Assembly: GCA_004296145.1 (NCBI GenBank)
Contig: SEBM01000001.1
Location: 1-37,961, forward strand
Origin: Flavobacterium sp.
GTDB taxonomy: Bacteria > Bacteroidota > Bacteroidia > Flavobacteriales > Flavobacteriaceae
Direction: 5' to 3'
Length of the DNA: 37,961 nt
Position numbers and translations under genes: made by a program. The notes beneath the pieces were generated by a model. It saw only the letters and a program-made list of their open reading frames with translations. It did no database searches and had not been told where the DNA came from. Below are positions 9,781-34,457 of the stretch, piece by piece (position 1 is the first letter of the stretch; the number at the start of each line of letters is the position of its first letter).

Positions 9781-9808
9781 TAATTATTAAAATCTCTATA
9801 TTAAAATT

Positions 9809-16110: not shown

Positions 16111-16112
16111 TA

Positions 16113-19079
16113 ATGGCTTTCAACGAACTAAATAGTGTAGAACATTACATCATCAACCAACTTTCAGGAGTCAACTTGAATACAAATAAATTTCATGAAC
16201 CAAAAGTAGGCTATGGAATTCAATGGCAGTATAAATCTGCAGCCGATTTAAATCGCTCAGTAAATGAGGTTTTGTTAGAGCAAGAATTAAAGGATGCATT
16301 AATTCGACTAAATCCAGAAATTACTGCCAAGCCTGAGCTCGCCGATGAAGTAATCTATAAACTAAGGGCCATTTTAATTTCTGTAAATCATACAGGTTTG
16401 GTAAAAGCCAATGAAGAGTTTTTTAAATGGCTAGGTGGAGATAAAACTATGCCATTTGGCGAAAATAACCGACATGTGCCCATTAGAATTTTCGACTTCG
16501 AAAACTTAAATCAAAATACCTATATCGTTACCAACCAGTTTAGAATTCATCACCGCGAAACTAAAATACCTGATATCGTACTATTTATCAATGGAATTCC
16601 AGTTGTGGTGGGTGAGGCAAAAACCCCCATACGTCCAAGCGTTAGTTGGCTAGATGGTGCTTACGAAATTCACGAGGTGTACGAAAACTCAGTTCCCCAA
16701 CTGTTTGTGCCGAACATACTATCTTTTGCAACAGAAGGTAAAGCGTTGTATTACGGGGGTATCCGCTGCCCTTTAGATTTTTGGGCACCTTGGCGCTTAG
16801 AAGATGAAGATGATGTTTTGGCTCGTAGGTTAGGATTGGGAGAAATAGGTAAAGAGATGGGTGATTTGTTACATCCAGCTCGTTTGTTAGATATTTTACA
16901 AAATTTTTCTTTGTTTACAACTAACAAAAAGAAACAACGTAGCAAGGTAATCCCTCGCTTTCAACAATACGAAGGTGCTAACAAAATTGTTGCCCGCGTA
17001 AAAGAAGGTCGTGTAAAAAAGGGTTTAATCTGGCATTTTCAAGGTTCTGGAAAGTCCTTACTGATGGTTTTTGCCGCACAAAAGTTAAGACGAGCTGCCG
17101 AATTAAAAAGTCCAACAGTTATTGTACTGGTGGATCGGACAGATTTAGATACCCAGATTTCAGGCACCTTTAATGCCTCAGACATTCCGAATGTTGAGGC
17201 AACAGAAAGTATTAAGGATTTACAAAGAATGTTGGAGCAAGATACTCGAAAAATTATCATCTCGATGATACATAAGTTTCGAGATGCCAAGCCTAATATG
17301 AATACCAGAGATAATATTATTGTGTTGGTTGATGAAGCCCACCGTACGCAAGAAGGAGATTTAGGTAGGCAAATGCGAGCTGCTCTACCGAATGCATTTT
17401 TGTTTGGATTAACGGGTACGCCCGTGAATAAAGCAGATAAAAATACTTTTTGGGCTTTTGGTTCTGATGAAGATGAAGGCGGTTATCTATCCCGTTATAC
17501 CTTTCAAGATTCTATTCGTGACGGTGCTACGCTTCCACTTCATTTTGAACCTCGTTTAATTGATGTTCATGTGGATAAGGAAACCATAGATCAGCTTTTT
17601 GCGGCGTTTAAAGAAGAGGCAGCATTAACTGATGAAGAAGCAGATGCATTGAACAAAAAATCTGCAAAGATGGCGGCGTTTCTTAAATCACCTGAAAGGG
17701 TAGCCAAAATAGTAAAGGATATTGCTACTCATTTTAAGGATAAGGTATTACCACACGGCTTTAAAGCGATGATTGTTACGCCTGATCGTTTTGCATGTAC
17801 ATTATATAAAGAAGAATTAGATAACTATTTTCCTAAAGAAGCAAGTAGAGTAGTAATCTCAACGATTCCCAATGATACTGCTGAATTTAAGGAAAAGTGG
17901 GGCATAGATAAATCACAACAAGAAAGGATAGTGGATGAGTATAATGACCCACTTTCTGATTTGCAATTTTTAATCGTTACTGCTAAACTATTAACAGGTT
18001 TTGATGCACCAATTTTGCAAACGATGTACTTAGATAAGTCGATCAAAGACCATACACTATTGCAGGCAATTTGTAGAACCAATCGTTTATTTCCTAACAA
18101 AACCTATGGTAGGATTGTAGACTATTTTGGAGTATTTGATGATGCTGCTAAAGCGTTGGAGTTTGACGAGACATCAGTTAAGCAAATTATCACAAATTTA
18201 TCTGAACTAAGGGCACAGTTGCCACAAGCAGTAAAAGATACGTTAGTACACTTTGATGGCGTAGATAGAACAAAGCAAGGCTTTGAAGGATTGGAAGATG
18301 CACAAAACGCTATTAAAACAGTCGAGAAAAAAGACGCTTTTGCTGCAGATTATAAATTCTTAAGTAAACTATGGGAATCGCTTTCTCCGGATAATATATT
18401 AGGACTATACCAAACAGATTACAAATGGTTGTCTCAAGTATATGAGTCAGTACGTCCAGCTTCAGATAATATTGGGAAGTTATTGTGGATGACCTTAGGG
18501 GCACAAACGACTAAATTGATTCATGATAATATACACGTAGGTGATATCCACAATTTGGATGAGTTTATTTTGGATGCCGATGTGATTGAGGACATTTTCA
18601 ATAACCCAGATCCTAAGAACGCTAAGAAACTAGAAAAGTTACTGGTTAACAGATTTAAGAAACATGAGGAAAATCCAAAGTTTAGAAAACTTAGTGAGCT
18701 ATTAGAAGAACTTAGAGATAGAGCAGAAAAGGGTTTGATAACTTCGATAGAATTTGTTAAAGAACTTTGTAAAATAGCCAAAGAAACTGTTCAAGCGGAA
18801 AAAGATTTAGCAGCCGCTTACCAAGAAAAATCGCCAAAGGCCGCATTAACAGAATTGTTTATAGAATTAAAAACTGAACAAACTCCTGCTGTAGTAGAAC
18901 GAATTGTAGCAGATATTGATGCTATTGTTCGGGTCGTTAGTTTTCCAGGATGGCAAAAAACCACATCGGGAGAAAGAGAGGTTCAAAAATCACTACGTCA
19001 AGCGTTACTAAAATATCAGCTTCACAAAGACCAGATTTTATTTGATAGGGCATATAGTTATATTAAGGAATATTATTAA
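16113..19079 (+). CDS. hsdR: Type I R-M restriction subunit
   Basis: Nuclease motif PDIV...EAK; helicase motifs WHFQGSGKS, DEAHR, TGTP, LLTGFDAP and QAICRTNR. Confidence 0.95.
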   Translation: MAFNELNSVEHYIINQLSGVNLNTNKFHEPKVGYGIQWQYKSAADLNRSVNEVLLEQELKDALIRLNPEITAKPELADEVIYKLRAILISVNHTGLVKANEEFFKWLGGDKTMPFGENNRHVPIRIFDFENLNQNTYIVTNQFRIHHRETKIPDIVLFINGIPVVVGEAKTPIRPSVSWLDGAYEIHEVYENSVPQLFVPNILSFATEGKALYYGGIRCPLDFWAPWRLEDEDDVLARRLGLGEIGKEMGDLLHPARLLDILQNFSLFTTNKKKQRSKVIPRFQQYEGANKIVARVKEGRVKKGLIWHFQGSGKSLLMVFAAQKLRRAAELKSPTVIVLVDRTDLDTQISGTFNASDIPNVEATESIKDLQRMLEQDTRKIIISMIHKFRDAKPNMNTRDNIIVLVDEAHRTQEGDLGRQMRAALPNAFLFGLTGTPVNKADKNTFWAFGSDEDEGGYLSRYTFQDSIRDGATLPLHFEPRLIDVHVDKETIDQLFAAFKEEAALTDEEADALNKKSAKMAAFLKSPERVAKIVKDIATHFKDKVLPHGFKAMIVTPDRFACTLYKEELDNYFPKEASRVVISTIPNDTAEFKEKWGIDKSQQERIVDEYNDPLSDLQFLIVTAKLLTGFDAPILQTMYLDKSIKDHTLLQAICRTNRLFPNKTYGRIVDYFGVFDDAAKALEFDETSVKQIITNLSELRAQLPQAVKDTLVHFDGVDRTKQGFEGLEDAQNAIKTVEKKDAFAADYKFLSKLWESLSPDNILGLYQTDYKWLSQVYESVRPASDNIGKLLWMTLGAQTTKLIHDNIHVGDIHNLDEFILDADVIEDIFNNPDPKNAKKLEKLLVNRFKKHEENPKFRKLSELLEELRDRAEKGLITSIEFVKELCKIAKETVQAEKDLAAAYQEKSPKAALTELFIELKTEQTPAVVERIVADIDAIVRVVSFPGWQKTTSGEREVQKSLRQALLKYQLHKDQILFDRAYSYIKEYY

Positions 19080-19247: not shown

Positions 19248-19823
19248 ATGAATAATAAAAAAGAAATGAAATCTAGTAGTACTGTAATCAAATTTATGGA
19301 ACGTAACCTAACGCCCATTTCTCTGTATGTGGGAATAATCACTTGTTGTGTAATTCTTATACCACTCCTGTGGTCGGGGGAAACGTTAGTACTTCAATTG
19401 GGCGGTATGACACTTTCCACAACAATTTTTCTTGGATTCCTAAATTATCAGCATGCGCAAGATCGGTTGTTCAAAGATTTGTTTAAGGAGTTTAATGAAC
19501 GTTATGACAAATTTAACGATCACTACCAGCGAATAGCTGATGATTATTCAGACAATGTAAATATAGAAGATATAAATACCAAGGATAAAAAACTTATAGT
19601 TGATTACCTGAATCTTTGTACAGAGGAACATTTCTGGTTCGAAAAAGGAAGGATTGAACAAAATGCCTGGAAAAGTTGGGAAGCGGGTATGGAGACTTGG
19701 GCAAGCTTGCCTGTCGTCAGAAGGGTATTTGATTATGAAGTAGCCACATGGACTTCTTCGTATTATACAGGCTTTCAGGAGTTCTTTAAGGCTTTAATTG
19801 AAAAAGCTAAGGTTGATATTTAA
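19248..19823 (+). CDS. Hypothetical membrane protein (two N-terminal TM helices plus a helical soluble domain; DUF4760-like)
   Basis: 191-aa ORF with hydrophobic segments ISLYVGIITCCVILIPLLW and LQLGGMTLSTTIFLGFL, then LFKEFNERYD and YLNLCTEEHFW. Exact start uncertain. Confidence 0.7.
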   Translation: MNNKKEMKSSSTVIKFMERNLTPISLYVGIITCCVILIPLLWSGETLVLQLGGMTLSTTIFLGFLNYQHAQDRLFKDLFKEFNERYDKFNDHYQRIADDYSDNVNIEDINTKDKKLIVDYLNLCTEEHFWFEKGRIEQNAWKSWEAGMETWASLPVVRRVFDYEVATWTSSYYTGFQEFFKALIEKAKVDI

Positions 19824-19996: not shown

Positions 19997-20152
19997 ATGG
20001 ATTTAGAAAAAGTTTTAACTGCGTATAAAGAACTTATTGACTTTAGAACAGAAAACTTTAGATCTTATGTGCCTCGAACTCACTCGCCAGCCTTAGGATT
20101 GCTGTTACCTAGGATTGTTGAAGAAGAATTAATTGATATAATCGAGTATTAA
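19997..20152 (+). pseudogene. Short ORF or gene remnant (51 aa, MDLEKVLTAY...)
   Basis: ATG 21 bp after the hairpin; protein-like composition; stop overlaps the start of the HNH gene by 1 bp. Confidence 0.3.
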
Positions 20153-21114
20153 TGCGCTCTCCAACGCTCCAAAAATATATTAATGCCTTTACTCGCCTTA
20201 AGCGAGGAGGGACGGTATATGGTTTAGCCCCACATAAACCTGTATTGCTCATCAGCTTAATAGAACTGATAGAAAAAGGATTGGTAACAGAAAACAAAAT
20301 CTTTGTAAATGCCGACCTTGTTGGCACCTTTAAAGAAAACTGGCAACTGTTAGTGCCCACCTTACATCAGCCAGATTTTACCCAGCCATTTTACTATTTA
20401 CAGAATGAAAAAATAGCAGATACGGCTTACTGGTTTTTACAGCCAAATACAGGTTGCCAAATCGATGCGCACATTAAATCTGTAAATACATTGCAGGCTG
20501 TTTGCGCCTATGGTTATTTTGCAACAGAACTTTACCTCTTGCTTGCCGCTGCACAACAAAGAAGCGTTTTATTGCAAATCTTGTTACAGACTTATTTCCC
20601 GGCGCAAAAAGCAGTTTTTTTACAAGCTAAAAACAGGGGAGAAGGTTATCTGCATGAGCAAGTAAACTACATATTAAACGAACCCGAAGTAAAATACAAA
20701 CACATAACTACCCATACCGAGGAAGATGTTTTTGTACGTAATGGCCTCTTTAAAAAGCTGGTGCCTAAAATTTACCATAACCAATGTAGTTTTACTGGTA
20801 TGGCCATTAGCAGTACCTTTAACTATAATTTTATAGATGCCTGCCACATTGTGCCCTTTAGCTTAACGCATGATGATAAGGTAACCAATGGCATAGCCTT
20901 ATGCCCCAACTTACACAGGGCATTTGACAGAGGTTTGGTAAGTATTGACACTGATTATCGAATACTAGTTTCAAAACATTTAACTGAAGATGAAAAACAT
21001 CCTTATGGCTTAAGACAGCTAGTCGGTAAAAAGATGCTGTTGCCACAACAAAAAATTCACTACCCTGAAATGGAAGCATTAAATTGGCACAGGGAAGAAA
21101 TATTTAAAAAATAG
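20152..21114 (+). CDS. HNH endonuclease with N-terminal SBD-like domain (putative modification-dependent, possibly phosphorothioate-dependent, restriction enzyme)
   Basis: APHKPVLL...QPFYYL N-terminal motif; C-terminal DACHIVP...NGIALCPNLHRAFDRG...LNWHR HNH domain. Confidence 0.8.
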   Translation: MRSPTLQKYINAFTRLKRGGTVYGLAPHKPVLLISLIELIEKGLVTENKIFVNADLVGTFKENWQLLVPTLHQPDFTQPFYYLQNEKIADTAYWFLQPNTGCQIDAHIKSVNTLQAVCAYGYFATELYLLLAAAQQRSVLLQILLQTYFPAQKAVFLQAKNRGEGYLHEQVNYILNEPEVKYKHITTHTEEDVFVRNGLFKKLVPKIYHNQCSFTGMAISSTFNYNFIDACHIVPFSLTHDDKVTNGIALCPNLHRAFDRGLVSIDTDYRILVSKHLTEDEKHPYGLRQLVGKKMLLPQQKIHYPEMEALNWHREEIFKK

Positions 21115-21131
21115 CCTATTTAACAGTATCT

Positions 21132-21908
21132 CTAAATATTAACTAACCTATTGAGTTCTGAAACTTTATTATAGAAATAAACAGATGAGTCCTTTAATGG
21201 AGATATCATTTTTAGTAAAAGTTTTGGTTCAAATATCATTTTTACTTTTTCTATTTCTGATTCTAGTTGATAGTCTTTTAAAGGAGATTCTAGAACTATA
21301 GGAGTTATGTTCGGGATTTGGCAAACTAATGAACTATAAGCGAGTATAGAATCAAACGTAATTGAGTGGTGTGCACTATCTGAATTTACCTCACTCATAT
21401 GCACCTGAACTAGCCTCTCCTTGAAAAGTTCAATCATTCTTGCTCCTTCATTAAGCGTAGGGTCTACTTGTTTTGCATGTGCAATATCGAAACAAAAGCT
21501 TGCATCAGGTAATTTTTGAAACAACGTTTCCATATCCTTAGAGGTACGACCAATATGCTTACGTTTATCCATGTTTTCTAGGCATAAATATTTACCTAGA
21601 CGTTGCCATAATATAAAGTCTGTAATAATATCTGGGTGTACTACGATGTGCATACCTCTACGTGCAACACGCTCTAAATGACTAACGAACTGCACCTCAG
21701 AAAAGCTACCTAACTTACTAGGTGCATGGAATGATTTATATTTATATTTTGATAAATCAAGATCATCTAATACCTTCAATAAAGGTAAAAATTCGTCTTC
21801 ACGAAGCGCACTTAATTCTATTACGTTGGCACTTGTTTTTTTTAATAAATCCAAGGCCAATCTGAAATTACCTTTGGCAATACTGCCTGTAGAAAATCCT
21901 ATATTCAT
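21132..21908 (-). CDS. Xylose isomerase-like / AP endonuclease 2 TIM-barrel metalloprotein
   Basis: Ordered metal-ligand motifs HAP, HPD, ENMD, FDIAHA, HMSE, HH and LESP. Confidence 0.75.
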   Translation of the reverse strand: MNIGFSTGSIAKGNFRLALDLLKKTSANVIELSALREDEFLPLLKVLDDLDLSKYKYKSFHAPSKLGSFSEVQFVSHLERVARRGMHIVVHPDIITDFILWQRLGKYLCLENMDKRKHIGRTSKDMETLFQKLPDASFCFDIAHAKQVDPTLNEGARMIELFKERLVQVHMSEVNSDSAHHSITFDSILAYSSLVCQIPNITPIVLESPLKDYQLESEIEKVKMIFEPKLLLKMISPLKDSSVYFYNKVSELNRLVNI

Positions 21909-22964
21909 CTAAAAAAGTACATATTTTTGAGTAAATGCTTTTAATTCTTTATCGTCTTCAAATAGGTTATTCATAGCTTCTTGAAACTCATTTGCTATTT
22001 TACGAGCTGCTAAAAACTCCACATCATCGTATGCTGTATTTGTTGTTAAGCTTGCCAGATGTTCCCTTTTATTATCATCATTAATTATGCCTAAAAAAGC
22101 ATCATAGCGATCGATTATCTGTAACAACAACTCGTCTACATCCCGATTACTCATTACCTTTATTAGAATTTCTAGAGGACTAAGTCTAATTACTTCAAGA
22201 AGATGATCGCGTACTGGATCCTTCCCTTGTTTATCATTTAGATAACAACTGAAACACATCAGCAGTCCCTTAACGTAGATTAATTTACGCGAAAGGCGTA
22301 GCTTGATATTTCGTAATCCCCATTTTCCTTCAGGCTGCCCTTTTTGTTTATAAGCAAAATCAACACATATTGTTCTCCAAAATCTGATAATGTCATTTAA
22401 AAGAAATCGAGGTACAGTTGAAGTTTTATCAATATTGCACACCAGTGAAGAATCATGGCTAACATATTCTTCAATTATTTGACGAACTACTCTCTCAAAC
22501 GCTGTGCCTGTGTCATCTTCTTCATCATTTATTAACATCTTTTCGGCTTCAAGTAAAAGAAGTACCCGCCTTGAAATATTGTGATTGGTGTCGTCTTGGC
22601 CACCTATATAGTGTACCAGTTCGTGACTAAAGGTAATATTGCCAAACATACCACTTGTTCCAGGTTCTTCTAACTTTGCTACTGTTAAGGCGGTTTTAAT
22701 AGTGTCCGCTACTCTGTAATGTGGTCCAGCTTGTCCATCTATTAATAAGGTCCAATCAACATCACTTTTAGAAGTGCATTCATTTCTGGCTATGGAACCA
22801 AACACAACCATATCAATATCTGATGTAGTCAAAGGCCTGTAAAGCTCAAGACTCTCAATTATCTTACCCCTAATGTTTTTTGTGTGTTCAATAGCCGCAA
22901 AAATATTCTCCCATTTTTTATTATGGGCCTCTTTGAAATCAACTATGATACTTGTTTGAGACAT
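21909..22964 (-). CDS. Pol-beta superfamily nucleotidyltransferase with a helical C-terminal domain
   Basis: VVFGSIARNECTSKSDVD matches hG[GS]-x(n)-DxD; later RRVLLLLE, FLLNDIIRFWRT and WGLRNIKLRLSRK helical motifs; ends in KYVLF. Confidence 0.85.
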   Translation of the reverse strand: MSQTSIIVDFKEAHNKKWENIFAAIEHTKNIRGKIIESLELYRPLTTSDIDMVVFGSIARNECTSKSDVDWTLLIDGQAGPHYRVADTIKTALTVAKLEEPGTSGMFGNITFSHELVHYIGGQDDTNHNISRRVLLLLEAEKMLINDEEDDTGTAFERVVRQIIEEYVSHDSSLVCNIDKTSTVPRFLLNDIIRFWRTICVDFAYKQKGQPEGKWGLRNIKLRLSRKLIYVKGLLMCFSCYLNDKQGKDPVRDHLLEVIRLSPLEILIKVMSNRDVDELLLQIIDRYDAFLGIINDDNKREHLASLTTNTAYDDVEFLAARKIANEFQEAMNNLFEDDKELKAFTQKYVLF

Positions 22965-23304
22965 ATTTACTAAAGAACATGCTAAAGTACTAATAATTAT
23001 AGTTAAGTTCTATTTAAAGCAGCGCAAGTTATTCACAGATTGTCTTTCCTTTTTCAATTCGTTGTTTTCTATCAAAACTAGGATGCCTTAATGGAGCTTG
23101 TTCATTTTTATAATGCTTAGGGTTAACTATAGTTTTAAAGAAAGACAGTTTCAAATTGATTTGAAGCCACTGCCCTTTGGTTTTGTATAATGAGAAACCG
23201 CAGATAGTTTTGATAGAGGCTAACAACGGAAGTTTGCTGGTGATGAAAGATGAAACTCAAACCAAACAATCTTAGGTAGTAACGCACTAAAAATCCTGAG
23301 TTAT

Positions 23305-24432
23305 TTATATGATTTTATTTGATAATAAAAATTCTTTTACTGCTTCTGCTACTGCTTTTGCTAGCGGAACAGGAACCCCATTTCCAATCATTTTAAATTT
23401 CTTACTTAATGAAACTTCACTAGGAAGAATATATTCATCGGGCACCCCTTGTATTCTTAATGCTTCTCTTGCAGATAAACGTCTGTGCAAATATGGGTGC
23501 AAATGAACTTCATTGTTGCCATAACAAGCTGTAGGGCTGTATTTGAAACGGTGAAGTCGTTTAAATGAAGGCCTATTTGTTTCGCCTTCATTTATAGTTT
23601 TCAATTCGTTTATTGGTTTATATAAAGTAAATATTTCGTTTGCGTTTGGAATTAAGTCCACCTCGTTATTTGATACCAAACAGCTCTCAACACACAATTC
23701 AAATGGAACATCTTCAGGTTTTTTTAATGATTTTCCAAACGAAACTTGCTTACCCCAATTATATTTTATTGCAGCATTGTGGTATTTTTCGTTTACAGGA
23801 AACGGAAACCATTTGCCAAACGGTGTTTGTTCAATATTTTTTTTGCTAATGCAACCTTTTCGTATACCAATAAAAAACACACGTTCTCTATGTTGTGGCA
23901 CCCCATAATTCAATGAATTTAGTTTTTCGTGGTCAACGTAATACTCTTTTTCAACTCGCTTCAAAAGCGTTTGTAAGTACTCTTTGCTTTCTTTTCGCTT
24001 TGTCAAACCGGTTACATTTTCCATAACGAAAAACGTTGGTTTCAATTCTAAAATTTTGTCAAAGTAAACAACTGTAAGTTTTCCTCTTTCACCGTCAAAG
24101 CCTTTTAACGAACCGTTCATACTAAAATCCTGACAAGGCGGACCGCCAATTATTCCAAAATGTTCAGGTTTTCCATTTGGAAAGGCTTCTGAGATAATTT
24201 CTTTTGATTTTATTTCATTAATGGATTTTGTATTGAAAATTTCTGCTTTAACTCCGTTGCCTCTTGATTTTCGCCAAGACGTCATACCAGCAGCGTGAAG
24301 TTGGGCGAAAATTTTATCAAATTCATTTGTCCAAATAGTTTCAAAACCTGCTTGTTCAAAACCCATATCTAAAAAGCCACCACCGGAGTAGAAGGAAAGA
24401 ATTGGAATTTTATGTTCATGGTGGTTATTCAT
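23305..24432 (-). CDS. C5 cytosine DNA methyltransferase (DruM-like position)
   Basis: Motif I YSGGG, IV GPPCQDFS, VI ENV, VIII QHRERVF, IX REALRIQG and X IGNGVP. Confidence 0.95.
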   Translation of the reverse strand: MNNHHEHKIPILSFYSGGGFLDMGFEQAGFETIWTNEFDKIFAQLHAAGMTSWRKSRGNGVKAEIFNTKSINEIKSKEIISEAFPNGKPEHFGIIGGPPCQDFSMNGSLKGFDGERGKLTVVYFDKILELKPTFFVMENVTGLTKRKESKEYLQTLLKRVEKEYYVDHEKLNSLNYGVPQHRERVFFIGIRKGCISKKNIEQTPFGKWFPFPVNEKYHNAAIKYNWGKQVSFGKSLKKPEDVPFELCVESCLVSNNEVDLIPNANEIFTLYKPINELKTINEGETNRPSFKRLHRFKYSPTACYGNNEVHLHPYLHRRLSAREALRIQGVPDEYILPSEVSLSKKFKMIGNGVPVPLAKAVAEAVKEFLLSNKII

Positions 24433-25495
24433 AAATGATTGTTGTCTTTATTGCAGCGTAAAAAAAATCTCTTGGTTCTCTTTTTAGATTGAACACATTT
24501 ATCTTTTTGTTTTTGCTGTTATTTAATTCATCAAACTTTTCAGAGGGCAAATTTGAAATTGTAAACATTTTGTCTCCTGATTTCAAATATAAGCCCACAT
24601 TTCCATTTTGAAACTTCACAACATTTTGAACTGAACCAGAAACATCATTGTATGAATTGTCTGTTTCAATATGTTTCAAATAGAAGGAACAAGCCGGTCT
24701 GTATAAACAATACTTACAATTTGCTTTTGTTGGGTTTGCTGTGAATGTTCCATTGTCAATACAATCATTTGTTGAATTCAGTAACGATTTTGCTTCTTCA
24801 AAGATAGCATTGCATTCATTCACTGAGAAGTCAACTGTAAACTTTTGATTAGTTAAATCAACTAAACTTAATTGTGTTGGAAACTTGCCGGTGTTTTCAA
24901 AATACAAATAAGCATAAAGTTTTAGTTGGTCCTTGTATTCTGCTTTCAATTCTGAATTTATTTCTCCATCATCGTCCAAAACATCTTGTGTTATTGCTCC
25001 GGTTTTGAAATCGAGTATTTCAGTTTCATATTCAGCTTCAATTACTAAATCAATTTTGCCACCAATCAATTTATCTTTTGATTCATACCATTTTTCTGAA
25101 TGGAACTTTGTATTGTTTGCTCTTGCTGGTCTTTCAGAAACATTTTGTAAATGGTCTTTGAGCAAAATCTTTTTCATGGTAAAATCTTTTACCTTCTTTT
25201 GAAGTGGAACGAAAAAATCATAACCATCAGCAACCAACTTTTCTTCCATTAATTTTATTTGCTCTTGAAAAGCAGTATTGAAATCATCTTCATTTCTTAT
25301 TTGTCCTTTTGAAATCAACTCAAGCATGTTGTGCAATACTGTTCCGTAATAAGCATTAACAGAAACAGGAAGCAATGCTTTTTTATTCATTGCTTCTGCC
25401 AATAAAGATTTATAACCACAATTTTTCATAGAATAAAATTGGCTTGGAGAAATCCTTTGGATTTTCTTGAAATTTATTTTGCCAACTTGATTCAT
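24425..25495 (-). CDS. RecB/AddB/Cas4-like PD-(D/E)XK nuclease with predicted Fe-S cysteines
   Basis: ISPS...C, GTVLH, GKIDLV...DFKTG, QLKLYA and CKYCLYRPAC motifs. Confidence 0.88.
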   Translation of the reverse strand: MNQVGKINFKKIQRISPSQFYSMKNCGYKSLLAEAMNKKALLPVSVNAYYGTVLHNMLELISKGQIRNEDDFNTAFQEQIKLMEEKLVADGYDFFVPLQKKVKDFTMKKILLKDHLQNVSERPARANNTKFHSEKWYESKDKLIGGKIDLVIEAEYETEILDFKTGAITQDVLDDDGEINSELKAEYKDQLKLYAYLYFENTGKFPTQLSLVDLTNQKFTVDFSVNECNAIFEEAKSLLNSTNDCIDNGTFTANPTKANCKYCLYRPACSFYLKHIETDNSYNDVSGSVQNVVKFQNGNVGLYLKSGDKMFTISNLPSEKFDELNNSKNKKINVFNLKREPRDFFYAAIKTTIIYE

Positions 25496-28400
25496 TATCT
25501 GATAACTAACTTTTCATAACACCAACCTGGTCTTCTGTGTAAATTGAAAGTGTCAATGATGCTTAATGAACCACCGGAAGCATCTTTGTATTTCCTTAAT
25601 GCTGTAATGGTCTTTGCCAACCAATTTTCATCGTAATTCAAATTAGCAACATTCCAAAACGGGTGAACAATTGCAATGATATTTTTCTTGTCTGCACCCC
25701 ATTTAATTATTGGTAGTCCGTTCACTTCTTCTTTGTGATTGTAGCCGAAACTTTGAGCAAAAGAATCCCTTAAGCTGAGTGCGTTGCTAAGCCAACCTCT
25801 TAATTCAACAAAGTCGAAATTTTTATCTGCACCACAGACAAATTTTTCATCTTGTATTATTCGCATCATTGAAAGTGCTAATCTCCAATCAAGCAAACTG
25901 TGATAATTCATGTTCCTGTAAACTTTCAAACATTCGTAGCAAGAGTCAAAACATGAACCAGAATGAGAATCGGAATGAATTTTTTTTAGGTAAACTTTTT
26001 CATCGGGCGGAGAAATTGCATCTGAAAGAATCGTGTCAAAGTTTTTATATAAGTGTCTTACGAAACCTGAACCATTTGGCAATTCGTCTGTCAAAATAAT
26101 TTCAGCGACAAATCTTTCTGTATCATCATTCAATGCCTTTCTTGAAATATCTGCAATCTCAATTTCAGTTGGGTCAACATCAAGTTTGTCTGCAATAATT
26201 CTTTGAAGTAAAAATGCTGCTGAATAATAACCTGAACGCACACCATATGATTGTGCTCGTATATGAGGTGAATCATTTTCATTTGAAACCATATTCAGAT
26301 TCAGTTCTGATGGAACAGATGCCGGTGATAATCTTAGAATTTCTGTTTTCTTGTTACTTGCTAAAGCAATTGCTTCTTCTTGTGAATCTGCTATTGGAAA
26401 TGGTTCCATTGAATAACCATTGTCATCAATGTAACGACTCGATAAATCGTTCAACAACCATTGCTCTTTGAATCTATATCCTATTCGCTGTTCAAAAGGA
26501 TATTTGTTTACAATGTTGTATCGCTTGCCTACGAAAAAATTATCTGAATTTGTATTAACTCTCCAAGTGACATCACGGTCAGTAATTGAGATGTTAGCAT
26601 TTCTAATTTTATCCGTTTCAGTTTTGTTATCATCTTCGTTATTAGACTCTGCAAAAATTGGTGGTCTGGATAAAAGAATAAGTGAGTCTTCCTTTGAATC
26701 ATTCCCCTGTGCAAGATTTGTTCTGTATGCTTTCGGTGCTTTTAATAAAACTGGTTTTTGATAATTGGATTCATCTTCACCACAATCCAGACAAACGGTT
26801 TCTCTGCCTTGAAAATCTTCTTCCTTTTCATAAGTCCTAAATGTACCGCAAGTTTTGCATCTCGTCATCCACTTATTTATGTAGAAGGGGCTTCCATTGA
26901 AATTTGGACTTCCGTATTGCGATAACTTATCTGAAAATTCAGAAGTGAAACCGATTACTGTATGAATTGCTTTGTCTTTCGTTTTCTGTGCACCTGGAGC
27001 AAATTCATAAATTGCCATTGCTTGGTCTCTGTCAATCAAAAGTGGTTCAAATTGTTCATTGATTCCGTGATATAAATTTTTTACAGTCGTTGGCATTCCA
27101 AACATTGGAAGAATTCCACCCTCTGCTAATTTTTGAGAAATATCATCGGAAGAAATTTCTCTATTATCAATTACACTTTGAGATATATTTATTAATCCGC
27201 TTTTTGTATCTACATCACAAACCCAATTGATAAATTCCTCTCGTTGCTCTTTTAGCTCTGGTGTAATCAAGGCATCAACTGTTTTTTCAACTTCATTTTT
27301 GTAGTTGGTTATCCAACTAATTATTTGGGGTTTGTAAATCAACCAATTTGTTTGTAGTTCTCCACCGATTGTTCCAAACTCTCCATGAATACTTGATTTG
27401 CCATCATTGGAAATATTGATTGTATTTTGTATGTATGCTTTCCTAAAAATTTCTTTTGCAAGTAGTCGTTTAAAAATTCGGTCTTGATCCATTGTAAGAA
27501 ATGGAGTAGGCGGTGAATCGTTTGTAATCTTGTGAGGATTTGCAAAATAAAATTCGTCATGGCTTCTACCTCTACAAAAAGTAAGTATCACAGAATATGC
27601 TTGTCCTCTTCGTCCAGCTCTGCCAACTCTTTGTTGATAGTTGAATCTTTGAGGTGGCATATTGCCTAACATAACTGCTTGCAATGCGCCAATATCAACA
27701 CCAACCTCAAGCGTAGTTGTTACACTTAACAAGTCAATCGTTTTGACATCTTTGCTTCCTTCACTTGGCAAAATGATATTTCTGAAATGTCTTTGCCTTT
27801 CAAACTGGTCATCTGTTTGTCCTGTCAGTTCTTCGCAATGCAAACGAATTGGCTTACGTTGCTTGGTGATTGCATTGAACGCCAAATAATTTTTCTCCCA
27901 AAGAGTTTTGCAATTCTCATTTGACAGTGTCAATGCAGTTGAAACAATATCGTCTCTCGTAGTTCCCGCAAATGTGCAAATGCCACCTGATGTGTGTAGG
28001 TGTGGTCGGTTCACGAGTGTACCCTTCCAAATTTGATTTTCTTCCTCTGAAACTTTGATAAACAAACTCTCAATCATTAAACCTCTTTGAGAATCTAAAA
28101 CTCCTGAACCATGAAGCGTTTCAAAAATTGCACTACCCAAATCATCGGTGTTAAGAATGTTTTTTGCAGCAACATTTTTTATCCATCTCTTAAGTGCTGG
28201 CGGTAATGAATCAAAACTTGTGAAAGGATTTCTATTTGGAAAATCTGAATAATTGTGTTTGTATTTATCTCCTAAAATTCTGATTGAACTATTGACAATG
28301 TCAAGGAACAAGGCCGGACGCATGTTTAATACTCCAGCAAAATGATTTATTTGAGAACTGTTTGGATTGATTGAGAGATAACCAAAACCGGAAGATTCAA

Positions 28401-31400
28401 ATGAGTAAAACAGTTGTCCGAAAAACATTTGAGATAATTCTTCAAATGAATTATTTCTGATTTCCTGAATGAATGAATTCAAGTTTGCTTGTGCTTTCCA
28501 AAGAGGCTCTTGTAAGAAGTCAATCAAGTTATACCAGTCAACCCAAACACCATTTGCAATTTCTTTTTTTCTGATAGAAATATTTAAACCCCCTGGGTTC
28601 ACGCCAAGTTTCGCAAGATTTTTTACAATGGGAGCAAGATTAAAAGAAGGAGAGAGGTCGACAAGTTCACGAACATTTATCGATTTACTCATAAACTGAT
28701 TTATTTTATCTAATGCTTTGTCCTTGTCTTGTTTGTTTGGAGAATTAGCATTGTAGAAAAGTGTATTTACTTCATCAAAAATAATTGGTTGCTCTCTTTC
28801 AAAGTTTTGTTTCGTGTTTTCATCAGATTTGGCAAAGGCAATTACAAGTTCATTCTTCTTCAAAATATTTCTGTGAAGTTCGTAGAGCAAAGTTTCTCTA
28901 AGCAAATCGGTAAAATGGTTTCTCTCAATTCCGTTTGCAACTTGTGCAGCATCTTCACGGCTGTCAGAAAACACAACCAACTTTCTTTCATCAACTTTGT
29001 CCGGTAGTTGTAACATTAATTCCTTTGCGAAAATTTGACTGGTCTTGGCGAAACCTGTTCTGAATGCTCTTAAAGTTGTTTTCCTACTTTTCTTTTCAGA
29101 GTAATCAGTTCCGCAACAAGGACAAACACAAGGAAGTGCGTAATGTGTTTCCTGTGTTAAGTTTTGCGTTTGCCATAATTCCCTAGCAACATCATTACCG
29201 TTATGGAATATGTAAAACATTCTTCCAATAATCCAATCTTTTGGTATCTCCTTATCGTTTTTATTTCCTGTGTCGACATCACCTGACTTTACATTAAGTA
29301 TTGCCGGAATCCATTGAGCAATGTAATCTCGGGTGTCGCTTGTGTTGACTAAAGTTTGATCGCTCCAATTGTCGGCTTCTTGGCCAGCATTTCTTCCGTA
29401 ACGCTGTGTGTGTTTTGTAAATTTTTGTTTGCCTTGTGCCCAAAAAACTCCAAACTCCTGATAAGTTCTTTTATCAACTAATTTCCCGGGTGTCTTTTCC
29501 GGTATCCCTTCAATCTTTGGACTTAAAGGGAGAAGTTCCCAAGTTCCTTTCTTTCCAATTGACCTGCTTCCACCAAAAAAAGTTGTTCCGCAATTATCGC
29601 AGTAAAGAAGTTCCAAAATTCTATTTCCGTTTTCGGAACTTATTTTGGTGGTTGAATAAAGTTTTCCGGCTGTCCTTTCTCCATCGTTGTAGCCATCTTT
29701 GCTTTCAATATCATCAGGGTTTATCGATGCCCAAACTCCTTCAATGTTTCTAAAGAAATAATGAAACCTGAATCGTGGTAATTTTCTTTCATCGGGTATT
29801 TTGATTTTTTCCGCAAATTCTTTTTCGTCAAGCAATGCTCTTGCAATAAGTAATCCTCTCAAAGCATTTTGTAAATCGTCTTGCGTTTTAGCTTGCTCAA
29901 AAATTGTTTCAGCAAAATATATTTCATCTGAATCATCACCGTCTGCTTTCAATGAACAAACTGCTTGATAGTTTTTGCAAGGTGAAAACAATCTTTCTTT
30001 CAAAAGGAAAATCGGATTGGTAATTACGGTGAGAAATTTTTCTATACCATATCCTTGTTGTGGAATTTTAAAGGCAGTTGCAATTTCCATTGCTGCTTTA
30101 TCGCAAGCAGAAATAAAATCAAGATTTGAAATATCTTCTTTCGCTGCTGAATATTTCAATGCAACTTCTTTGAATGGATTGATTGGAAGTTTCTTTTCGC
30201 TTGTTGGAACTTCTGAGACTGGATTATTTTTTCCCTCAATTATTTTAAATGGCTTTTCATTCCAATCAACTCCAAAAAAATCTTCAAGAAACTCTTTGCT
30301 CTTTTTTCCCTCTTTGGAATCATCCGCAACTATGGATGCACTTGATGCAAGTATTCGCAACTGTGGGTGCTGCGGATGCAGTCCTAAGCGGTCAAGTACA
30401 AGTTTGAGTAAATATGCTACCTCTGTGCCTTGTGTGCCTCTATACAAGTGTAACTCGTCAATGATTAAATGAAAGATTCTGTTAGGTCGTTCTGCTACTT
30501 TTTCTTTCTCTGATAAATCTTCGCACTCTAACCAACTTCTTGTTTCTTCAAATATTCCTGAATCAACTGCTCTCATTAACATGATGCTCAACATTGAAAA
30601 GTTGGTAATGAGAATGTCAGGCGGTGCAAGTTGCATATCAAATCTGCAACGCATTTCTGCACTGTTGTCAAGCCGTTGAAAAAATGATTTCAATTCTTTT
30701 ATTTTTTCAGTTTTCTTTTCATCAGAAAGTTTTTTGAATTCTTCTTCCTTTGGTAATTCTGTTCGGATGTATTCTGAAACTTTGTTGAATGCCTCGTCTA
30801 AATTTCTTAACTCGTCTTTGAGTTTGTTTATTTTGTTATCGTTTCTCTTTCCGTCTACTTTGAAAAGGCCTCCGGCAATTGGAGATGTGCCGTTGTATCT
30901 TCCAAAATAAATTGCATTGCCGTTTCCATTTTTGCTAAACCAATTTCTTGTGTCGTCTGAATCAAGTGCCTTTCTCAATCTGCTCATTTGGTCTTCTACC
31001 AAAGCATTCATCGGATAAAGAATCAATGCTCTTACTCCGGCTTTTCTAACATCGTGATTTCTTTGGCCTGCTGCCGGACTTAAACACTGGCTGGCTGTAT
31101 CAACAATATTTTTTGGTGTCAAACCATTTCCATCTTTCCACCATGAATCAACCGCTAATGATTTATGGTTTGTGTTTTTCCAGTGAGAAAATTCTTTTGA
31201 AAGTTGTGCAAATAATGGAAGTAAAAATGATTCTGTTTTACCTGAACCTGTTCCTGATGTGATGATGCAATTATTGCCTTCCAATGCTTCTTTTAACATT
31301 TTCGTTTGATGCAAATGCATTCGTACATTTGTAGGAAACAAACCTTGCTTTACAAGTTCTCTGAAAACTTTTGCTTCATCTTCGTTCAAAGCATTCCCTA

Positions 31401-31611
31401 AATCCTCCGGCTTTAAGTCGTCAATTAACTTTCCGCTTGTGATGTAATCCGGCAAAGGTTCAATCCATGGTTTGCGGTAAAGAACTTTGTCGTAGTTGAG
31501 TAAATCATTTCGTTCTTTTTCAAGTCCAGGAAACTTTGTTCCGAAAGCGGTTTCAACATACCGAATGAAATTGTCTTTGATGGTTTCAAATGAACCGATA
31601 GGGTCTTTCAT
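25495..31611 (-). CDS. druE: Large SF2 (DExH) helicase with C-terminal DUF1998/MrfA-type Zn domain, DruE-like
   Basis: TSGTGSGKTE, YPMNALVEDQ, DELH, SAS, TTTLEVGVDIG and QRVGRAGRR motifs; CxxC pairs; C-terminal CFDSCYECL..YRN...H..LDWRLA. 2038 aa matches Druantia DruE size. Confidence 0.8.
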   Translation of the reverse strand: MKDPIGSFETIKDNFIRYVETAFGTKFPGLEKERNDLLNYDKVLYRKPWIEPLPDYITSGKLIDDLKPEDLGNALNEDEAKVFRELVKQGLFPTNVRMHLHQTKMLKEALEGNNCIITSGTGSGKTESFLLPLFAQLSKEFSHWKNTNHKSLAVDSWWKDGNGLTPKNIVDTASQCLSPAAGQRNHDVRKAGVRALILYPMNALVEDQMSRLRKALDSDDTRNWFSKNGNGNAIYFGRYNGTSPIAGGLFKVDGKRNDNKINKLKDELRNLDEAFNKVSEYIRTELPKEEEFKKLSDEKKTEKIKELKSFFQRLDNSAEMRCRFDMQLAPPDILITNFSMLSIMLMRAVDSGIFEETRSWLECEDLSEKEKVAERPNRIFHLIIDELHLYRGTQGTEVAYLLKLVLDRLGLHPQHPQLRILASSASIVADDSKEGKKSKEFLEDFFGVDWNEKPFKIIEGKNNPVSEVPTSEKKLPINPFKEVALKYSAAKEDISNLDFISACDKAAMEIATAFKIPQQGYGIEKFLTVITNPIFLLKERLFSPCKNYQAVCSLKADGDDSDEIYFAETIFEQAKTQDDLQNALRGLLIARALLDEKEFAEKIKIPDERKLPRFRFHYFFRNIEGVWASINPDDIESKDGYNDGERTAGKLYSTTKISSENGNRILELLYCDNCGTTFFGGSRSIGKKGTWELLPLSPKIEGIPEKTPGKLVDKRTYQEFGVFWAQGKQKFTKHTQRYGRNAGQEADNWSDQTLVNTSDTRDYIAQWIPAILNVKSGDVDTGNKNDKEIPKDWIIGRMFYIFHNGNDVARELWQTQNLTQETHYALPCVCPCCGTDYSEKKSRKTTLRAFRTGFAKTSQIFAKELMLQLPDKVDERKLVVFSDSREDAAQVANGIERNHFTDLLRETLLYELHRNILKKNELVIAFAKSDENTKQNFEREQPIIFDEVNTLFYNANSPNKQDKDKALDKINQFMSKSINVRELVDLSPSFNLAPIVKNLAKLGVNPGGLNISIRKKEIANGVWVDWYNLIDFLQEPLWKAQANLNSFIQEIRNNSFEELSQMFFGQLFYSFESSGFGYLSINPNSSQINHFAGVLNMRPALFLDIVNSSIRILGDKYKHNYSDFPNRNPFTSFDSLPPALKRWIKNVAAKNILNTDDLGSAIFETLHGSGVLDSQRGLMIESLFIKVSEEENQIWKGTLVNRPHLHTSGGICTFAGTTRDDIVSTALTLSNENCKTLWEKNYLAFNAITKQRKPIRLHCEELTGQTDDQFERQRHFRNIILPSEGSKDVKTIDLLSVTTTLEVGVDIGALQAVMLGNMPPQRFNYQQRVGRAGRRGQAYSVILTFCRGRSHDEFYFANPHKITNDSPPTPFLTMDQDRIFKRLLAKEIFRKAYIQNTINISNDGKSSIHGEFGTIGGELQTNWLIYKPQIISWITNYKNEVEKTVDALITPELKEQREEFINWVCDVDTKSGLINISQSVIDNREISSDDISQKLAEGGILPMFGMPTTVKNLYHGINEQFEPLLIDRDQAMAIYEFAPGAQKTKDKAIHTVIGFTSEFSDKLSQYGSPNFNGSPFYINKWMTRCKTCGTFRTYEKEEDFQGRETVCLDCGEDESNYQKPVLLKAPKAYRTNLAQGNDSKEDSLILLSRPPIFAESNNEDDNKTETDKIRNANISITDRDVTWRVNTNSDNFFVGKRYNIVNKYPFEQRIGYRFKEQWLLNDLSSRYIDDNGYSMEPFPIADSQEEAIALASNKKTEILRLSPASVPSELNLNMVSNENDSPHIRAQSYGVRSGYYSAAFLLQRIIADKLDVDPTEIEIADISRKALNDDTERFVAEIILTDELPNGSGFVRHLYKNFDTILSDAISPPDEKVYLKKIHSDSHSGSCFDSCYECLKVYRNMNYHSLLDWRLALSMMRIIQDEKFVCGADKNFDFVELRGWLSNALSLRDSFAQSFGYNHKEEVNGLPIIKWGADKKNIIAIVHPFWNVANLNYDENWLAKTITALRKYKDASGGSLSIIDTFNLHRRPGWCYEKLVIR

Positions 31612-34427
31612 ATTGCTTGCATTGTTGTTTCAATTTTCATATCTAAAATTGCTTGAAAAAAATTGTGAGTGAATAACGATGGAATATTACGATAAACATT
31701 ATACGATACACTTTTTCCTTTCAAATTTATCTGCTTGAATTCCGGTGCTTCTCCACTAAGCTGTAAAATTAGTCGTGAGATGAATTTAGGTAATGGGATT
31801 GAAACCGGAATTGCAAGGTTTTTTGAATTACAAAATATTTCATTGGGTTTTGAAAAATAAATTCCATAACCGTAACCTCTAACTTTCTCAGAACAATTAT
31901 TGATGAACAAATACTTCCCCCAATTTTTATCTATTGGATAATATGATTGTTTAATCCACAAAGCAAATTCAGGGATGTAACTTGGTCTGCATTCAGTAAG
32001 AGAATATTCTTTGTCATAGCCATTAACTAATTCAAACTTTAAACTTTCTTTTCTGAATATCTTTTTCTCCAAGCCAAATTTTTCCCATGATTCAGAACTG
32101 CCTTTGCCAATTGTGTATTGCTCATATTGGCTCAATGTCGGTAGAAAGTTTTTCAATTTCAAAATATACCAATCATCAAACTCAATCTGAAAATGATTTG
32201 CAAGGTTTTCAAATTCTCTTTTGTTGTTGGTTTCAAAAATGATAGAATCAGGAATGAGCATTTGAAGGTTTTTTTCACTCTGTTTCTTAAAAGAAATGGT
32301 AATTCTGTTGTTGCTCTTTGAGCAATACGCAATCATTTCATTTACCATTTCTTCATCTCTCCCTCCAATCAAAAGCGCTTTTATTCCTCTGTCGCTTGGT
32401 ATTGAGATTAGTTTTGGGGGAAGTGTAAATATTTTATCGTCTGAATAATTGAAGTCTACATAACCTAAGTAATCTAAAATATTTAATGAAGATTTTCTTC
32501 TCTCTTGAAGCCTCAACTGCTCTCCTTCAAAAGTTTTATGTAAGATGGTTTCAAATGCCTCATTGTATTTTTTTATATCACATTCTTTAACACCTATCAG
32601 CCATTTCAAAAGCGTATTGTCCTTAAAATTCAATGCTGGTCCCTGTAGGATTGTCGCTTTCTGATTATTGATGAAAGTTTGAGTAAAAGCAACTTCATTT
32701 AGAAAGGAACAAACTATTCTATTTCCTTGAATGAATGTTGTTTCATCATCAACCTTTGCGTTGAACTTGTTTCTCTTGTGCAAGTTTTCATTGCTCAAAT
32801 CAAAGTGCGATGCTTCACCAATTTTATATGTTCTTCTAGCACCTTCAATAAATCCGTTTTCAATTTGTATGTAGAAACTTTTATTGACTGTAATGTTTTG
32901 AGGTAATAACCAAATGCCGCCAGTTCTTGAATGCTTGTCCAAAAAGAATTTTTCATTTTCATTCTCATATTGAATGTAAACCTTTTCGTTACCATCGGCA
33001 TTTGAAATTTCTACTTCAGGTAACATTTCATTCAGATAACTCAAATAACTAATTTTTAAACCTGTTCCTGCTCTTAGCGAAATCGTTTTGTTTTCATAAA
33101 CTTTTAGTTGAGGAAATTCAGTATGACTTTGATGTGGATTCTTGAACCAAAATAGCGAATGGTCTGGAGGCACATTTATCAATGTGGTTTCATTTCTGAA
33201 TTGGCTGCAACAGTTCTCACACCAATTTTGAATTGATTGACTGATGTTGTTTTTGCATAGCAAATACATTTCTTCAACTCGTGATAATTTTTCTGTTTCG
33301 ATAAAAAAATCATTTCCAAGTTGAAAGTAACCACCACGAATCAACAAGCGAATATTTTTGAAATCAAATACTGCTTTCCATTTGTTATGCGTGTCTTTCA
33401 GTTCAAACGAATCTTTGTAATTTCTCTTGAGTGTTCTTGACCAATGCTTGTTTTCATAAATGTCTTCAAACTCGTCAAACTTCAATTCGGGTGGTGGCTC
33501 GGAAGAATATTTTACTCTATATGAGAAAACAATTTCTCCATCCTCATTTACTTTGAATTGCAGTTTGAGTGGAACAACTGTGTTCTTTCTAATCTTCTTT
33601 TCAATTCCATCTTTTAAGACAATTTCGTGTTCTTCTCCTGTCCATTGAATGAATTCGGATTTTACAGTTTCAATAATTGATTGTCCAATTTCGTCAGCTG
33701 GTTTTTTTATGATTTCAACAACGCTCGTTTTCAATTCAAGAATTGCAATTCCGTTTCTGCTGCATAATTGTTGTTTGAAAAATTCGTCTTGATAAAAAGT
33801 TTTCGGAACAAAACCTGTTGCATAAAAAAAGTCTGACAATTTTCTGATTGCCTTTGGTGTCAAAACACATTGAGAAAATGGTTTGTAAACAAACTTCCTC
33901 GTCTCATGTGTAAACAGTAGTTCTTTGAAGCAACCCAACTCACCATTTTTTGTATTGATTGACCAATTTGAAAGGTCTGCCCATAACTCGTCAATATCAC
34001 GAAGTTTGTTTCTAAGATTTTGCTGAATGTTATTCTCATTCAAAAAATCTTTTAGTCGGTCATAATAATTTGTTGCGTAATAGTCGCCTTGAATTTCAAT
34101 GAGAGGCAATACCGCAAAAACTAAATGAGAAATATATGGCGGATATTTTACCTCAACTCCATCTATTTTTCTTATTCCTTTTTTCCATTGTTGAAAAGAG
34201 TGAATTGCCTTGTCAAAAATGTCAGGGTATCCGCTTGAACCCGGAAGCCCGTTTCTCAACTTGCGTAAATAATCTTCCCAAATTTCTTGATCGGTTTCTT
34301 CTTCAAAATTTTCTTTAGCAAGGTTTATAATTTCCTGTTTGGTAATGAACAAATGAATGTCCCTCCCCGCTTGGTTAGGGTTGAAAAAGTGTTTTGCGAT
34401 ATGATTGTTCCATTCAAGAAAGTTCAT
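31608..34427 (-). CDS. Large hypothetical protein (939 aa), probable Druantia accessory subunit (DruF/DruH-like position)
   Basis: Long uninterrupted ORF with a 4-bp overlap to the helicase; no catalytic motif recognised. Family inferred from context only. Confidence 0.7.
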   Translation of the reverse strand: MNFLEWNNHIAKHFFNPNQAGRDIHLFITKQEIINLAKENFEEETDQEIWEDYLRKLRNGLPGSSGYPDIFDKAIHSFQQWKKGIRKIDGVEVKYPPYISHLVFAVLPLIEIQGDYYATNYYDRLKDFLNENNIQQNLRNKLRDIDELWADLSNWSINTKNGELGCFKELLFTHETRKFVYKPFSQCVLTPKAIRKLSDFFYATGFVPKTFYQDEFFKQQLCSRNGIAILELKTSVVEIIKKPADEIGQSIIETVKSEFIQWTGEEHEIVLKDGIEKKIRKNTVVPLKLQFKVNEDGEIVFSYRVKYSSEPPPELKFDEFEDIYENKHWSRTLKRNYKDSFELKDTHNKWKAVFDFKNIRLLIRGGYFQLGNDFFIETEKLSRVEEMYLLCKNNISQSIQNWCENCCSQFRNETTLINVPPDHSLFWFKNPHQSHTEFPQLKVYENKTISLRAGTGLKISYLSYLNEMLPEVEISNADGNEKVYIQYENENEKFFLDKHSRTGGIWLLPQNITVNKSFYIQIENGFIEGARRTYKIGEASHFDLSNENLHKRNKFNAKVDDETTFIQGNRIVCSFLNEVAFTQTFINNQKATILQGPALNFKDNTLLKWLIGVKECDIKKYNEAFETILHKTFEGEQLRLQERRKSSLNILDYLGYVDFNYSDDKIFTLPPKLISIPSDRGIKALLIGGRDEEMVNEMIAYCSKSNNRITISFKKQSEKNLQMLIPDSIIFETNNKREFENLANHFQIEFDDWYILKLKNFLPTLSQYEQYTIGKGSSESWEKFGLEKKIFRKESLKFELVNGYDKEYSLTECRPSYIPEFALWIKQSYYPIDKNWGKYLFINNCSEKVRGYGYGIYFSKPNEIFCNSKNLAIPVSIPLPKFISRLILQLSGEAPEFKQINLKGKSVSYNVYRNIPSLFTHNFFQAILDMKIETTMQAI

Positions 34428-34429
34428 CT

Positions 34430-34457
34430 ACCTAACATAATGTGCGTTACAGATTTG
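34430..34457 (-). other. dif-like (XerC/XerD-type) recombination site candidate
   Basis: Minus strand CAAATCTGTAA-CGCACA-TTATGTTAGGT has the 11-6-11 layout with inner TAA/TTA; right arm matches the XerD arm TTATGTTAAAT at 9/11. Confidence 0.5.

Follow-up and report, generated by a model that had tools for sequence, protein, structure and literature searches.

What does a nucleotidyltransferase (NTase) do beside a TIM-barrel metalloenzyme? The question is raised by two minus-strand genes in a 37,961-nucleotide stretch of Flavobacterium sp. DNA (assembly GCA_004296145.1, contig SEBM01000001.1, positions 1 to 37,961 of the forward strand), which is the whole stretch that we analysed and is called the window here. 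An earlier reading, made from the letters alone (the sequence-only reading), had described the two genes as abutting, and we confirmed both open reading frames (ORFs; Table 1) and the gapless junction: the TAG stop of the NTase ends at 21909, and the ATG of the barrel gene (TIM hereafter) begins at 21908. The pair is a member of PDC-M70, a candidate already catalogued in PADLOC. As to what PDC-M70 does, we give about even chances to a writer/eraser toxin-antitoxin module in phage defence, in which the NTase would be the toxin and the TIM would be the eraser. What the analysis shows is membership of the family, the predicted fold of each protein, intact sites, strict linkage of the two genes, mobility and decay in one direction.

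Identity, linkage and mobility of the pair

The NTase matched the PADLOC model PDC-M70A (E 9.8e-115; residues 3-351 on model positions 4-355 of 355), and the TIM matched PDC-M70B (E 1e-91; residues 2-227 on model positions 3-228 of 238). Both models are matched nearly full length in adjacent genes, and nothing structural differs here. The sequence-only reading had recognised no named system with this pairing; a candidate name already existed. The main text of the preprint by Payne et al. (bioRxiv 10.1101/2024.01.29.577857) presents 145 PDCs, candidates embedded in BREX, DISARM and Type I restriction-modification (RM) loci, and describes them as untested. M70 is unmentioned in that main text, and the name PDC-M70 was not found in the main texts of the literature searched. 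Among the literature listings examined, on NTases together with TIM barrels, AP endonucleases, endonuclease IV, GlnE, GlnD or DUF294, there was no paper on this pair.

A genome scan returned 421 NTase relatives, of which the best 80 were kept; two of these loci are cut by contig ends. The TIM directly follows the NTase on the same strand in 77 of the 78 assessable loci, a pairing far beyond chance. The 80 loci span at least seven phyla and have no third conserved gene, the largest neighbour family occurring in about 10 related loci. The NTase profile collects 2445 clusters at 50% identity, 675 of them at E 1e-30, and the family can therefore not be called small. Longer fused forms did not turn up in a dedicated search, though this negative carries little weight. 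One 633-aa protein with NTase and TIM in one chain (P0340) was not counted as a fusion, because an assembly frameshift seems to lie at its junction.

The pair is tightly linked and mobile. Among 401 genomes of the window's phylum, a close copy occurs only in the window's own genome, and none of 15 same-genus genomes has one. A metagenome locus (L090) has only window positions 21040-23163 in common with our stretch (89% over 2164 bp), with different flanks, and it carries whole the 346-aa upstream gene whose 3' remnant ends the cassette in the window. A contig of run X2 likewise matches positions 21028-23164 and then diverges. The 3' end of that 346-aa gene lies within a small minus-strand ORF of the window (23029-23226), which marks the recombination edge of the cassette near 23163.

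Predicted folds and active sites

For conservation, the query was aligned with the best 120 of 1311 (NTase) or 1767 (TIM) hits, thinned at 75% identity. All 95 aligned NTase homologues share G56, S57, D70 and D125, and 94 of them share D68, which confirms the intact GS...DxD site seen in the sequence-only reading. The AlphaFold2 (AF2) model of the NTase (predicted local distance difference test, pLDDT, 94.9) was closest in VIA to DrrA (Z 15.1, root-mean-square deviation (rmsd) 4.0, 254 aligned residues), followed by the N-domain (Z 13.6, rmsd 5.1, 269 aligned) and the C-domain (Z 13.4, rmsd 4.6, 266 aligned) of GlnE. Subsequent matches drop to Z 7.0, with HalB at 5.3 and the CCA enzyme at 4.7. 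Foldseek agreed on the top four chains, and among named Atlas structures GlnD clusters came nearest (TM 0.56-0.61). CD-NTases do not appear among the top matches of either fold search, an absence to which we attach no weight. By its modelled fold, the NTase is of the GlnE/GlnD/DrrA type; it is not of the CBASS, AbiE or MenT type.

Like GlnD and GlnE, the protein combines an NTase domain with a helical bundle over its whole chain. PMC3710099 groups the C-terminal bundles of GlnD, GlnE and DUF294_C with DrrA. Unlike these enzymes, the present NTase stands alone at 351 aa, shares 11-13% identity with them and has no HD/ACT or second NTase domain; it is rare and mobile, and its candidate eraser is a separate TIM-barrel gene. 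The hhalign comparison with E. coli GlnE and GlnD covers the N-terminal motif only; against single GlnE, GlnD and Nfo sequences, hhalign gave low probabilities (0.6-4.3%) and was used for residue mapping only.

No SMODS or cyclase model of Pfam, PADLOC or NCBIfam matched the NTase at E 0.01, these collections gave no AbiEii/DUF1814-type match, and phmmer against CdnD reached only E 1.5. The match to MntA was weak and covered 27 residues; the minimal type has about 100 aa against 351 here, and the partner is not a HEPN protein as in Type VII MNT-HEPN. HalB belongs to the same superfamily but is distant, with a profile E of 0.36 and a fold score far below that of the best match. PDB sequence searches gave nothing useful for either protein, and no NTase relative was found in the phage records or viral contigs searched.

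The TIM is modelled as a single barrel without an extra sensor domain (AF2, pLDDT 97.7). Its residues H61, H91, E111, H144, H170, H180 and E207 are invariant in 83 of 83 homologues, and D141 in 82. In a weak hhalign alignment (probability 2.6%), E111, D141, H144, H170, H180 and E207 fall on E145, D179, H182, H216, H231 and E261 of E. coli Nfo. H61 and H91 fit Nfo H69 and H109 by strand position in the model only, and hhalign placed H61 on H109. The sequence-only reading had seen a full set of ligands of the endonuclease IV/xylose isomerase kind, which holds for eight of the nine positions; at the ninth, Nfo D229, the TIM has Ser. The best fold matches in VIA, at Z 19.8-18.0, are sugar epimerases and endonuclease IV, tied. 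Judging by the ligand sets of these enzymes, the two extra histidines together with H180 would point to a hydrolase with several metals more than to an epimerase with one. The likeness to endonuclease IV and PF01261 thus lies in the fold (Z 18-20) and the metal ligands; identity to Nfo is about 15%, and the TIM has invariant motifs of its own, ENMDKR and HxxQxD. It had no match to TIGR00587 (nfo) or any other NCBIfam model, and TIGR00587 had no match in the genome.

Direction of decay and the reading of the pair

With the NTase as anchor, the TIM was intact in 77 of the 78 assessable genome loci, absent in one (L055) and broken in none. With the TIM as anchor, we took the best 80 of 453 metagenome relatives, of which 18 were cut by contig edges; in the remaining 62 the NTase was intact in 46, split in 8, and missing or present only as a fragment in 8. 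An intact TIM without a working NTase was therefore found in 16/62 loci and the reverse in 1/78 (Fisher p 7e-6), or in 8/62 against 1/78 when only absent NTases are counted (p 0.011), p values that overstate the difference, since each anchored set was drawn from a collection of its own and related loci do not count as independent.

Orphan TIMs arose by loss of the NTase and not by original absence. One locus (L119) has an internal NTase deletion of about 850 bp relative to a locus with an intact NTase that is 92.5% identical at the TIM (L130), and NTase remnants abut the TIM in three others (L198, L155, L163; 31-46 bits, whereas none of 460 control windows reaches 30). Weaker remnants upstream of two TIMs (L105, 28.5 bits; L129, 25.8 bits) were within the control range and were not counted. 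Two of the split NTases (L113 and L114) are broken at the same model position beside identical TIMs, and for this reason we take the break as real and count it once. Among full-length orphan TIMs, nine of ten keep all 14 invariant residues checked. The same direction appeared within single genomes: in 301 genomes from the phylum of L036 and 281 from that of L012 (582, centre genomes included), a close-clade NTase was present in six genomes and accompanied by a TIM in all six, while the TIM was present in 11 and lacked the NTase in five, two of these being full-length.

An intact TIM on its own is thus tolerated by cells, and an NTase is hardly ever retained without its partner. Since decay runs in one direction, the NTase is likely the toxin and the TIM likely the antitoxin. 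This pattern is the opposite of what guard-type systems such as Clover and Hailong would predict, where, according to two reports, a dead NTase unleashes its partner (PMC12265719, PMC13434031). The NTases of those systems restrain a toxic partner; the decay pattern puts PDC-M70 in the opposite direction.

In the writer/eraser module that we propose, the NTase would arrest the cell by modifying a host target with one nucleotide or a few in a chain. The endonuclease-IV-like barrel would hydrolyse the resulting phosphodiester, with survival of the uninfected cell. Infection would tip the balance, for example through host shut-off or a broken NTase-TIM complex, and lead to abortive infection. Toxicity of the NTase, phosphodiesterase action of the TIM on the NTase product and a balance tipped by phage are what we infer. 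GlnD, GlnE and DrrA nucleotidylate protein tyrosines, and enzymes of their type work alongside erasers. If the model holds, a protein tyrosine would by analogy be the most likely acceptor, carrying roughly half of the weight. In its place may stand a nucleic-acid 3' end or a free oligonucleotide, a possibility suggested by the DEDDh and 2H proteins beside distant NTase relatives. DarTG is a writer/eraser toxin-antitoxin used in phage defence, and the proposed logic resembles it, with a toxic modifying enzyme and an enzymatic eraser that may also bind the toxin; PDC-M70 would transfer nucleotidyl groups instead of ADP-ribose, and the folds are unrelated.

Direct binding of the two proteins receives weak support from a predicted NTase-TIM complex, which scored 0.58, whereas the best of three controls scored 0.00. 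Of 157 solved pairs, 116 reach the mark used, as do 2 of 215 mismatches, and scores at the mark but not above 0.60 comprise only 18 solved pairs and both mismatches. The runs agreed in at least 75% of contacts, with partner pLDDT of at least 89.

Searches of plasmids and genomes gave sixteen distant NTase relatives (E 1e-13 to 1e-47), all with the same catalytic residues. In 14 of them the NTase adjoins a small nucleotide hydrolase of one of five other folds: a 2H phosphoesterase in five (L179, L180, L192, L193, L194), a SAMHD1-like HD protein in four (L084, L087, L176, L177), a HIT protein in two (L191 and, convergently, L082), a DEDDh exonuclease in two (L178, L200) and a histidine phosphatase in one (L083). 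No pore, NADase, TIR or patatin partner was found among the 16. In a tree of 34 sequences (17 TIM-paired NTases, the 16 distant ones and the NTase of locus L055), L055 grouped with the TIM-paired NTases in one branch (99/97), joined to the two HIT-paired ones (97/94, long branches). Partner labels cluster on this tree, with 8 changes against 16.4 when shuffled. The small phospho-hydrolase partners fit interchangeable erasers. It is possible, at a chance somewhat short of even, that PDC-M70 is the largest branch of a family, as yet undescribed, of stand-alone GlnE/GlnD-type NTase toxins, anti-phage in role, with exchangeable erasers from at least six unrelated hydrolase folds.

If true, this would add a toxin-antitoxin class based on reversible nucleotidylation and a new activity of the endonuclease IV fold. 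The writer/eraser reading of PDC-M70, if right, would extend GlnE/DrrA-type nucleotidylation to bacterial immunity, give an endonuclease-IV-like barrel a de-nucleotidylating role and account for several unannotated NTase-hydrolase pairs. GlnE-type chemistry, the inverted logic and the partner swap over six folds were not found in the literature searched.

The unannotated HD gene (4131-4499 joined to 1-684, across the origin) and the distant NTase (711-1706) of L084 appear to be the sole cargo of a 4.5-kb E. coli plasmid (NZ_CP092257.1), which is a ready-made E. coli test system for an HD-NTase pair. The pairs with a DEDDh exonuclease lie at L178:825-2451 and L200:648-2440, and the L178 exonuclease matches a PADLOC model named 'Effector, exonuclease' (E 1.6e-37). 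At L180:2454-3779, directly after a distant NTase, a 2H-like phosphoesterase region, with motifs recognised by eye, is fused to an Eco57I-type methyltransferase.

To assess the defence context, we took 20 diverse pair loci with 5 kb of flank on either side and, as controls, 10 kb of the same contig at a distance of about 50 kb; genes were called heuristically, and PADLOC was applied at E 1e-15. A PADLOC match was present in 13 of 20 pair regions and 6 of 20 control regions (p 0.056), and by protein in 28 of 175 neighbours and 7 of 153 controls (p 0.001). Dropping generic domains (kinase, UvrD, sigma-54 AAA, protease, DprA-like and generic methyltransferase) by a post hoc rule left 11 of 20 pair regions and 1 of 20 controls. 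The neighbours include Shedu, Iet, AbiL, Bil, BREX and RM genes; one copy adjoins Type I RM genes (L017) and another BREX (L012). The linkage and defence enrichment that the sequence-only reading had put up for checking were thus found, the first in nearly every locus and the second to a moderate degree.

Several points weigh against the toxin-antitoxin reading, in addition to the overstated p values. The eight split NTases could include sequencing errors; three of the five orphan TIMs of the same-genome sample are themselves partial or split; and L055 has a close-clade NTase whose catalytic site is intact, but its genome bin, a metagenome-assembled genome (MAG) that also encodes a distant NTase-DEDDh pair, contains no TIM. 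Sugar epimerases and endonuclease IV cannot be told apart by the fold search. No partner is visible for two distant NTases (L171, L195), the HD partners, similar to SAMHD1-type dNTPases, could act like the effector of Clover instead of as erasers, and L083 is part of a glycosyltransferase/MFS cluster; given these HD partners and this cluster, the branches of the NTase family need not share one role. The enrichment of defence genes is borderline by region, and 7 of the 20 loci have no PADLOC match within 5 kb.

The sequence-only reading had left two routes for the NTase, nucleotidylating a target or making a signal, with the TIM as eraser or effector. Our results support nucleotidylation with the TIM as eraser and weaken signalling in the style of CBASS or Hailong, because the NTase is of the GlnE/GlnD/DrrA type and no receptor or third gene is conserved. 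A CBASS-like arrangement, where infection would make the NTase produce a messenger and the TIM, once activated by it, would work as a nuclease or nucleotide hydrolase, is unlikely, with some weight left to it: it accommodates the defence context, the endonuclease IV-type site and orphan TIMs that would be harmless without a messenger, but leaves unexplained that the TIM is almost never lost first. It also sits badly with a TIM without a sensor domain, an NTase that is not a CD-NTase by hidden Markov model (HMM) and the lack of a pore, TIR or patatin partner among the 16 distant relatives. The partner differs from CBASS too, being a single TIM barrel and not a Cap effector with a sensing or membrane domain.

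End healing would have the TIM clean blocked 3' ends (2',3'-cyclic or 3'-phosphate) of tRNA or DNA damaged in conflict, with the NTase re-adding nucleotides. The swapped partner folds (2H, HD, HIT, histidine phosphatase, DEDDh and endonuclease-IV-like) are all known from end processing, and a healing enzyme could be useful alone, which would suit orphan TIMs. We consider it improbable: the NTase resembles GlnE and GlnD and not CCA-adding enzymes or poly(A) polymerases, as the fold scores given above indicate, it has no extra RNA-binding domain, and strict retention of the TIM would be unexpected if neither loss were lethal.

To a role outside defence we assign a similarly small probability. 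Here the NTase would reversibly nucleotidylate a metabolite, an antibiotic or a regulator, and the TIM would be an isomerase of the sugar type or a hydrolase. Sugar epimerases among the top TIM matches, the cluster around L083, the loci without nearby defence genes and the regulatory character of GlnD and GlnE speak for it; the very patchy distribution, down to the same genus, the lack of a conserved metabolic neighbour, the enriched defence neighbours and a cassette that moves between defence islands speak against it.

Guard logic as in Hailong, Clover or MNT-HEPN, with a constitutively toxic TIM restrained by the NTase product or by direct nucleotidylation, is very improbable in spite of its precedent in two-gene defence systems (PMC12265719 and PMC13434031), the Clover-like look of the distant HD-NTase pairs and the weakly predicted complex, because intact orphan TIMs, which would be lethal under it, are common and arise by NTase deletion, whereas orphan NTases, which it would permit, are rare. 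PDC-M70 shares the two-gene layout of NTase plus partner with Clover (CloA, a dGTPase, and CloB, an NTase making p3diT) and Hailong (HalA, a channel, and HalB, an NTase making ODA). HD proteins occur only beside distant relatives of PDC-M70A, a likeness to Clover that the TIM-paired branch does not share, and the soluble TIM barrel differs from the transmembrane channel HalA.

The surrounding defence island

The pair sits inside a dense defence island, with Type I RM, HNH and Druantia genes around it (Table 1). The HNH nuclease and the Druantia-like operon that the sequence-only reading had placed on the two sides were both recovered, the former by PF13391 and the latter as DruM, DruK, DruE and DruF-L in PADLOC. 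The HNH gene is convergent with the pair and also matches NF045808 (E 1.2e-27, below the model cut-off); the Druantia operon lies 340 bp upstream of the NTase on the same strand.

Table 1. Features of the PDC-M70 pair and its immediate flanks in the window.
Feature	Position	Strand	Description
PDC-M70A	21909..22964	-	351-aa Pol-beta-superfamily nucleotidyltransferase of predicted GlnE/GlnD/DrrA-type fold; proposed toxin/writer
PDC-M70A domains	21909..22964	-	NTase domain and C-terminal helical bundle
PDC-M70A site			G56-S57, D68-x-D70, invariant D125
PDC-M70B	21132..21908	-	258-aa TIM barrel of the xylose-isomerase/endonuclease-IV superfamily; proposed eraser/antitoxin
PDC-M70B predicted multi-metal site			H61, H91, E111, D141, H144, H170, H180, E207
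Mobile cassette extent	21040..23163	-	Both genes and ~200 bp upstream; edge at the upstream gene's 3' remnant
HNH endonuclease, phosphorothioate-restriction-like (flank, outside the unit)	20152..21114	+	PF13391, E 4e-12
Druantia operon (DruF-DruL fusion, DruE, DruK, DruM; flank, outside the unit)	23305..34427	-	PADLOC
Sigma-70-like promoter candidate	23126..23154	-	10/12 matches, 160 bp upstream of the NTase start; at chance level

The promoter scan as a whole was at chance, with 8 sites found against 10.9 +/- 4.4 in shuffled sequence. A metatranscriptome run (X1) contains the window stretch and does not show expression, because identical pieces of 4-12 kb in its contigs span intergenic DNA as well as genes.

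On the left side, the Type I RM locus (1695-19079, plus strand) has two HsdM genes (1695-3170 and 5002-6459) and four embedded genes: HEC-05/GmrSD (3177-5000), a TmtA/sacsin-like protein of 1538 aa, an SF1 helicase and a 679-aa HATPase-like protein (7741-9780, plus strand) with no PADLOC match. In the interval from HsdR to the HNH gene, a 191-aa orphan (19248-19823, plus strand) has two N-terminal hydrophobic segments and no convincing family match in Pfam, PADLOC or NCBIfam.

On the right side, the Druantia operon carries both DruK and DruM, a mixture of type II and type IV parts, and its minus-strand gene at 31608-34427 fuses DruF (residues 1-571) to DruL (605-906). A 94-aa fragment (34424-34708, minus strand) matches the N-terminus of HamA only (E 9e-14) and is probably a decayed Hachiman remnant. 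Upstream of Druantia, the minus-strand pair at 34740-36201 had no Pfam, PADLOC or NCBIfam match; one gene encodes a soluble protein of 320 aa and the other a protein of 163 aa in which several hydrophobic segments occur, a layout that we take to be reminiscent of Kiwa-type pairs.

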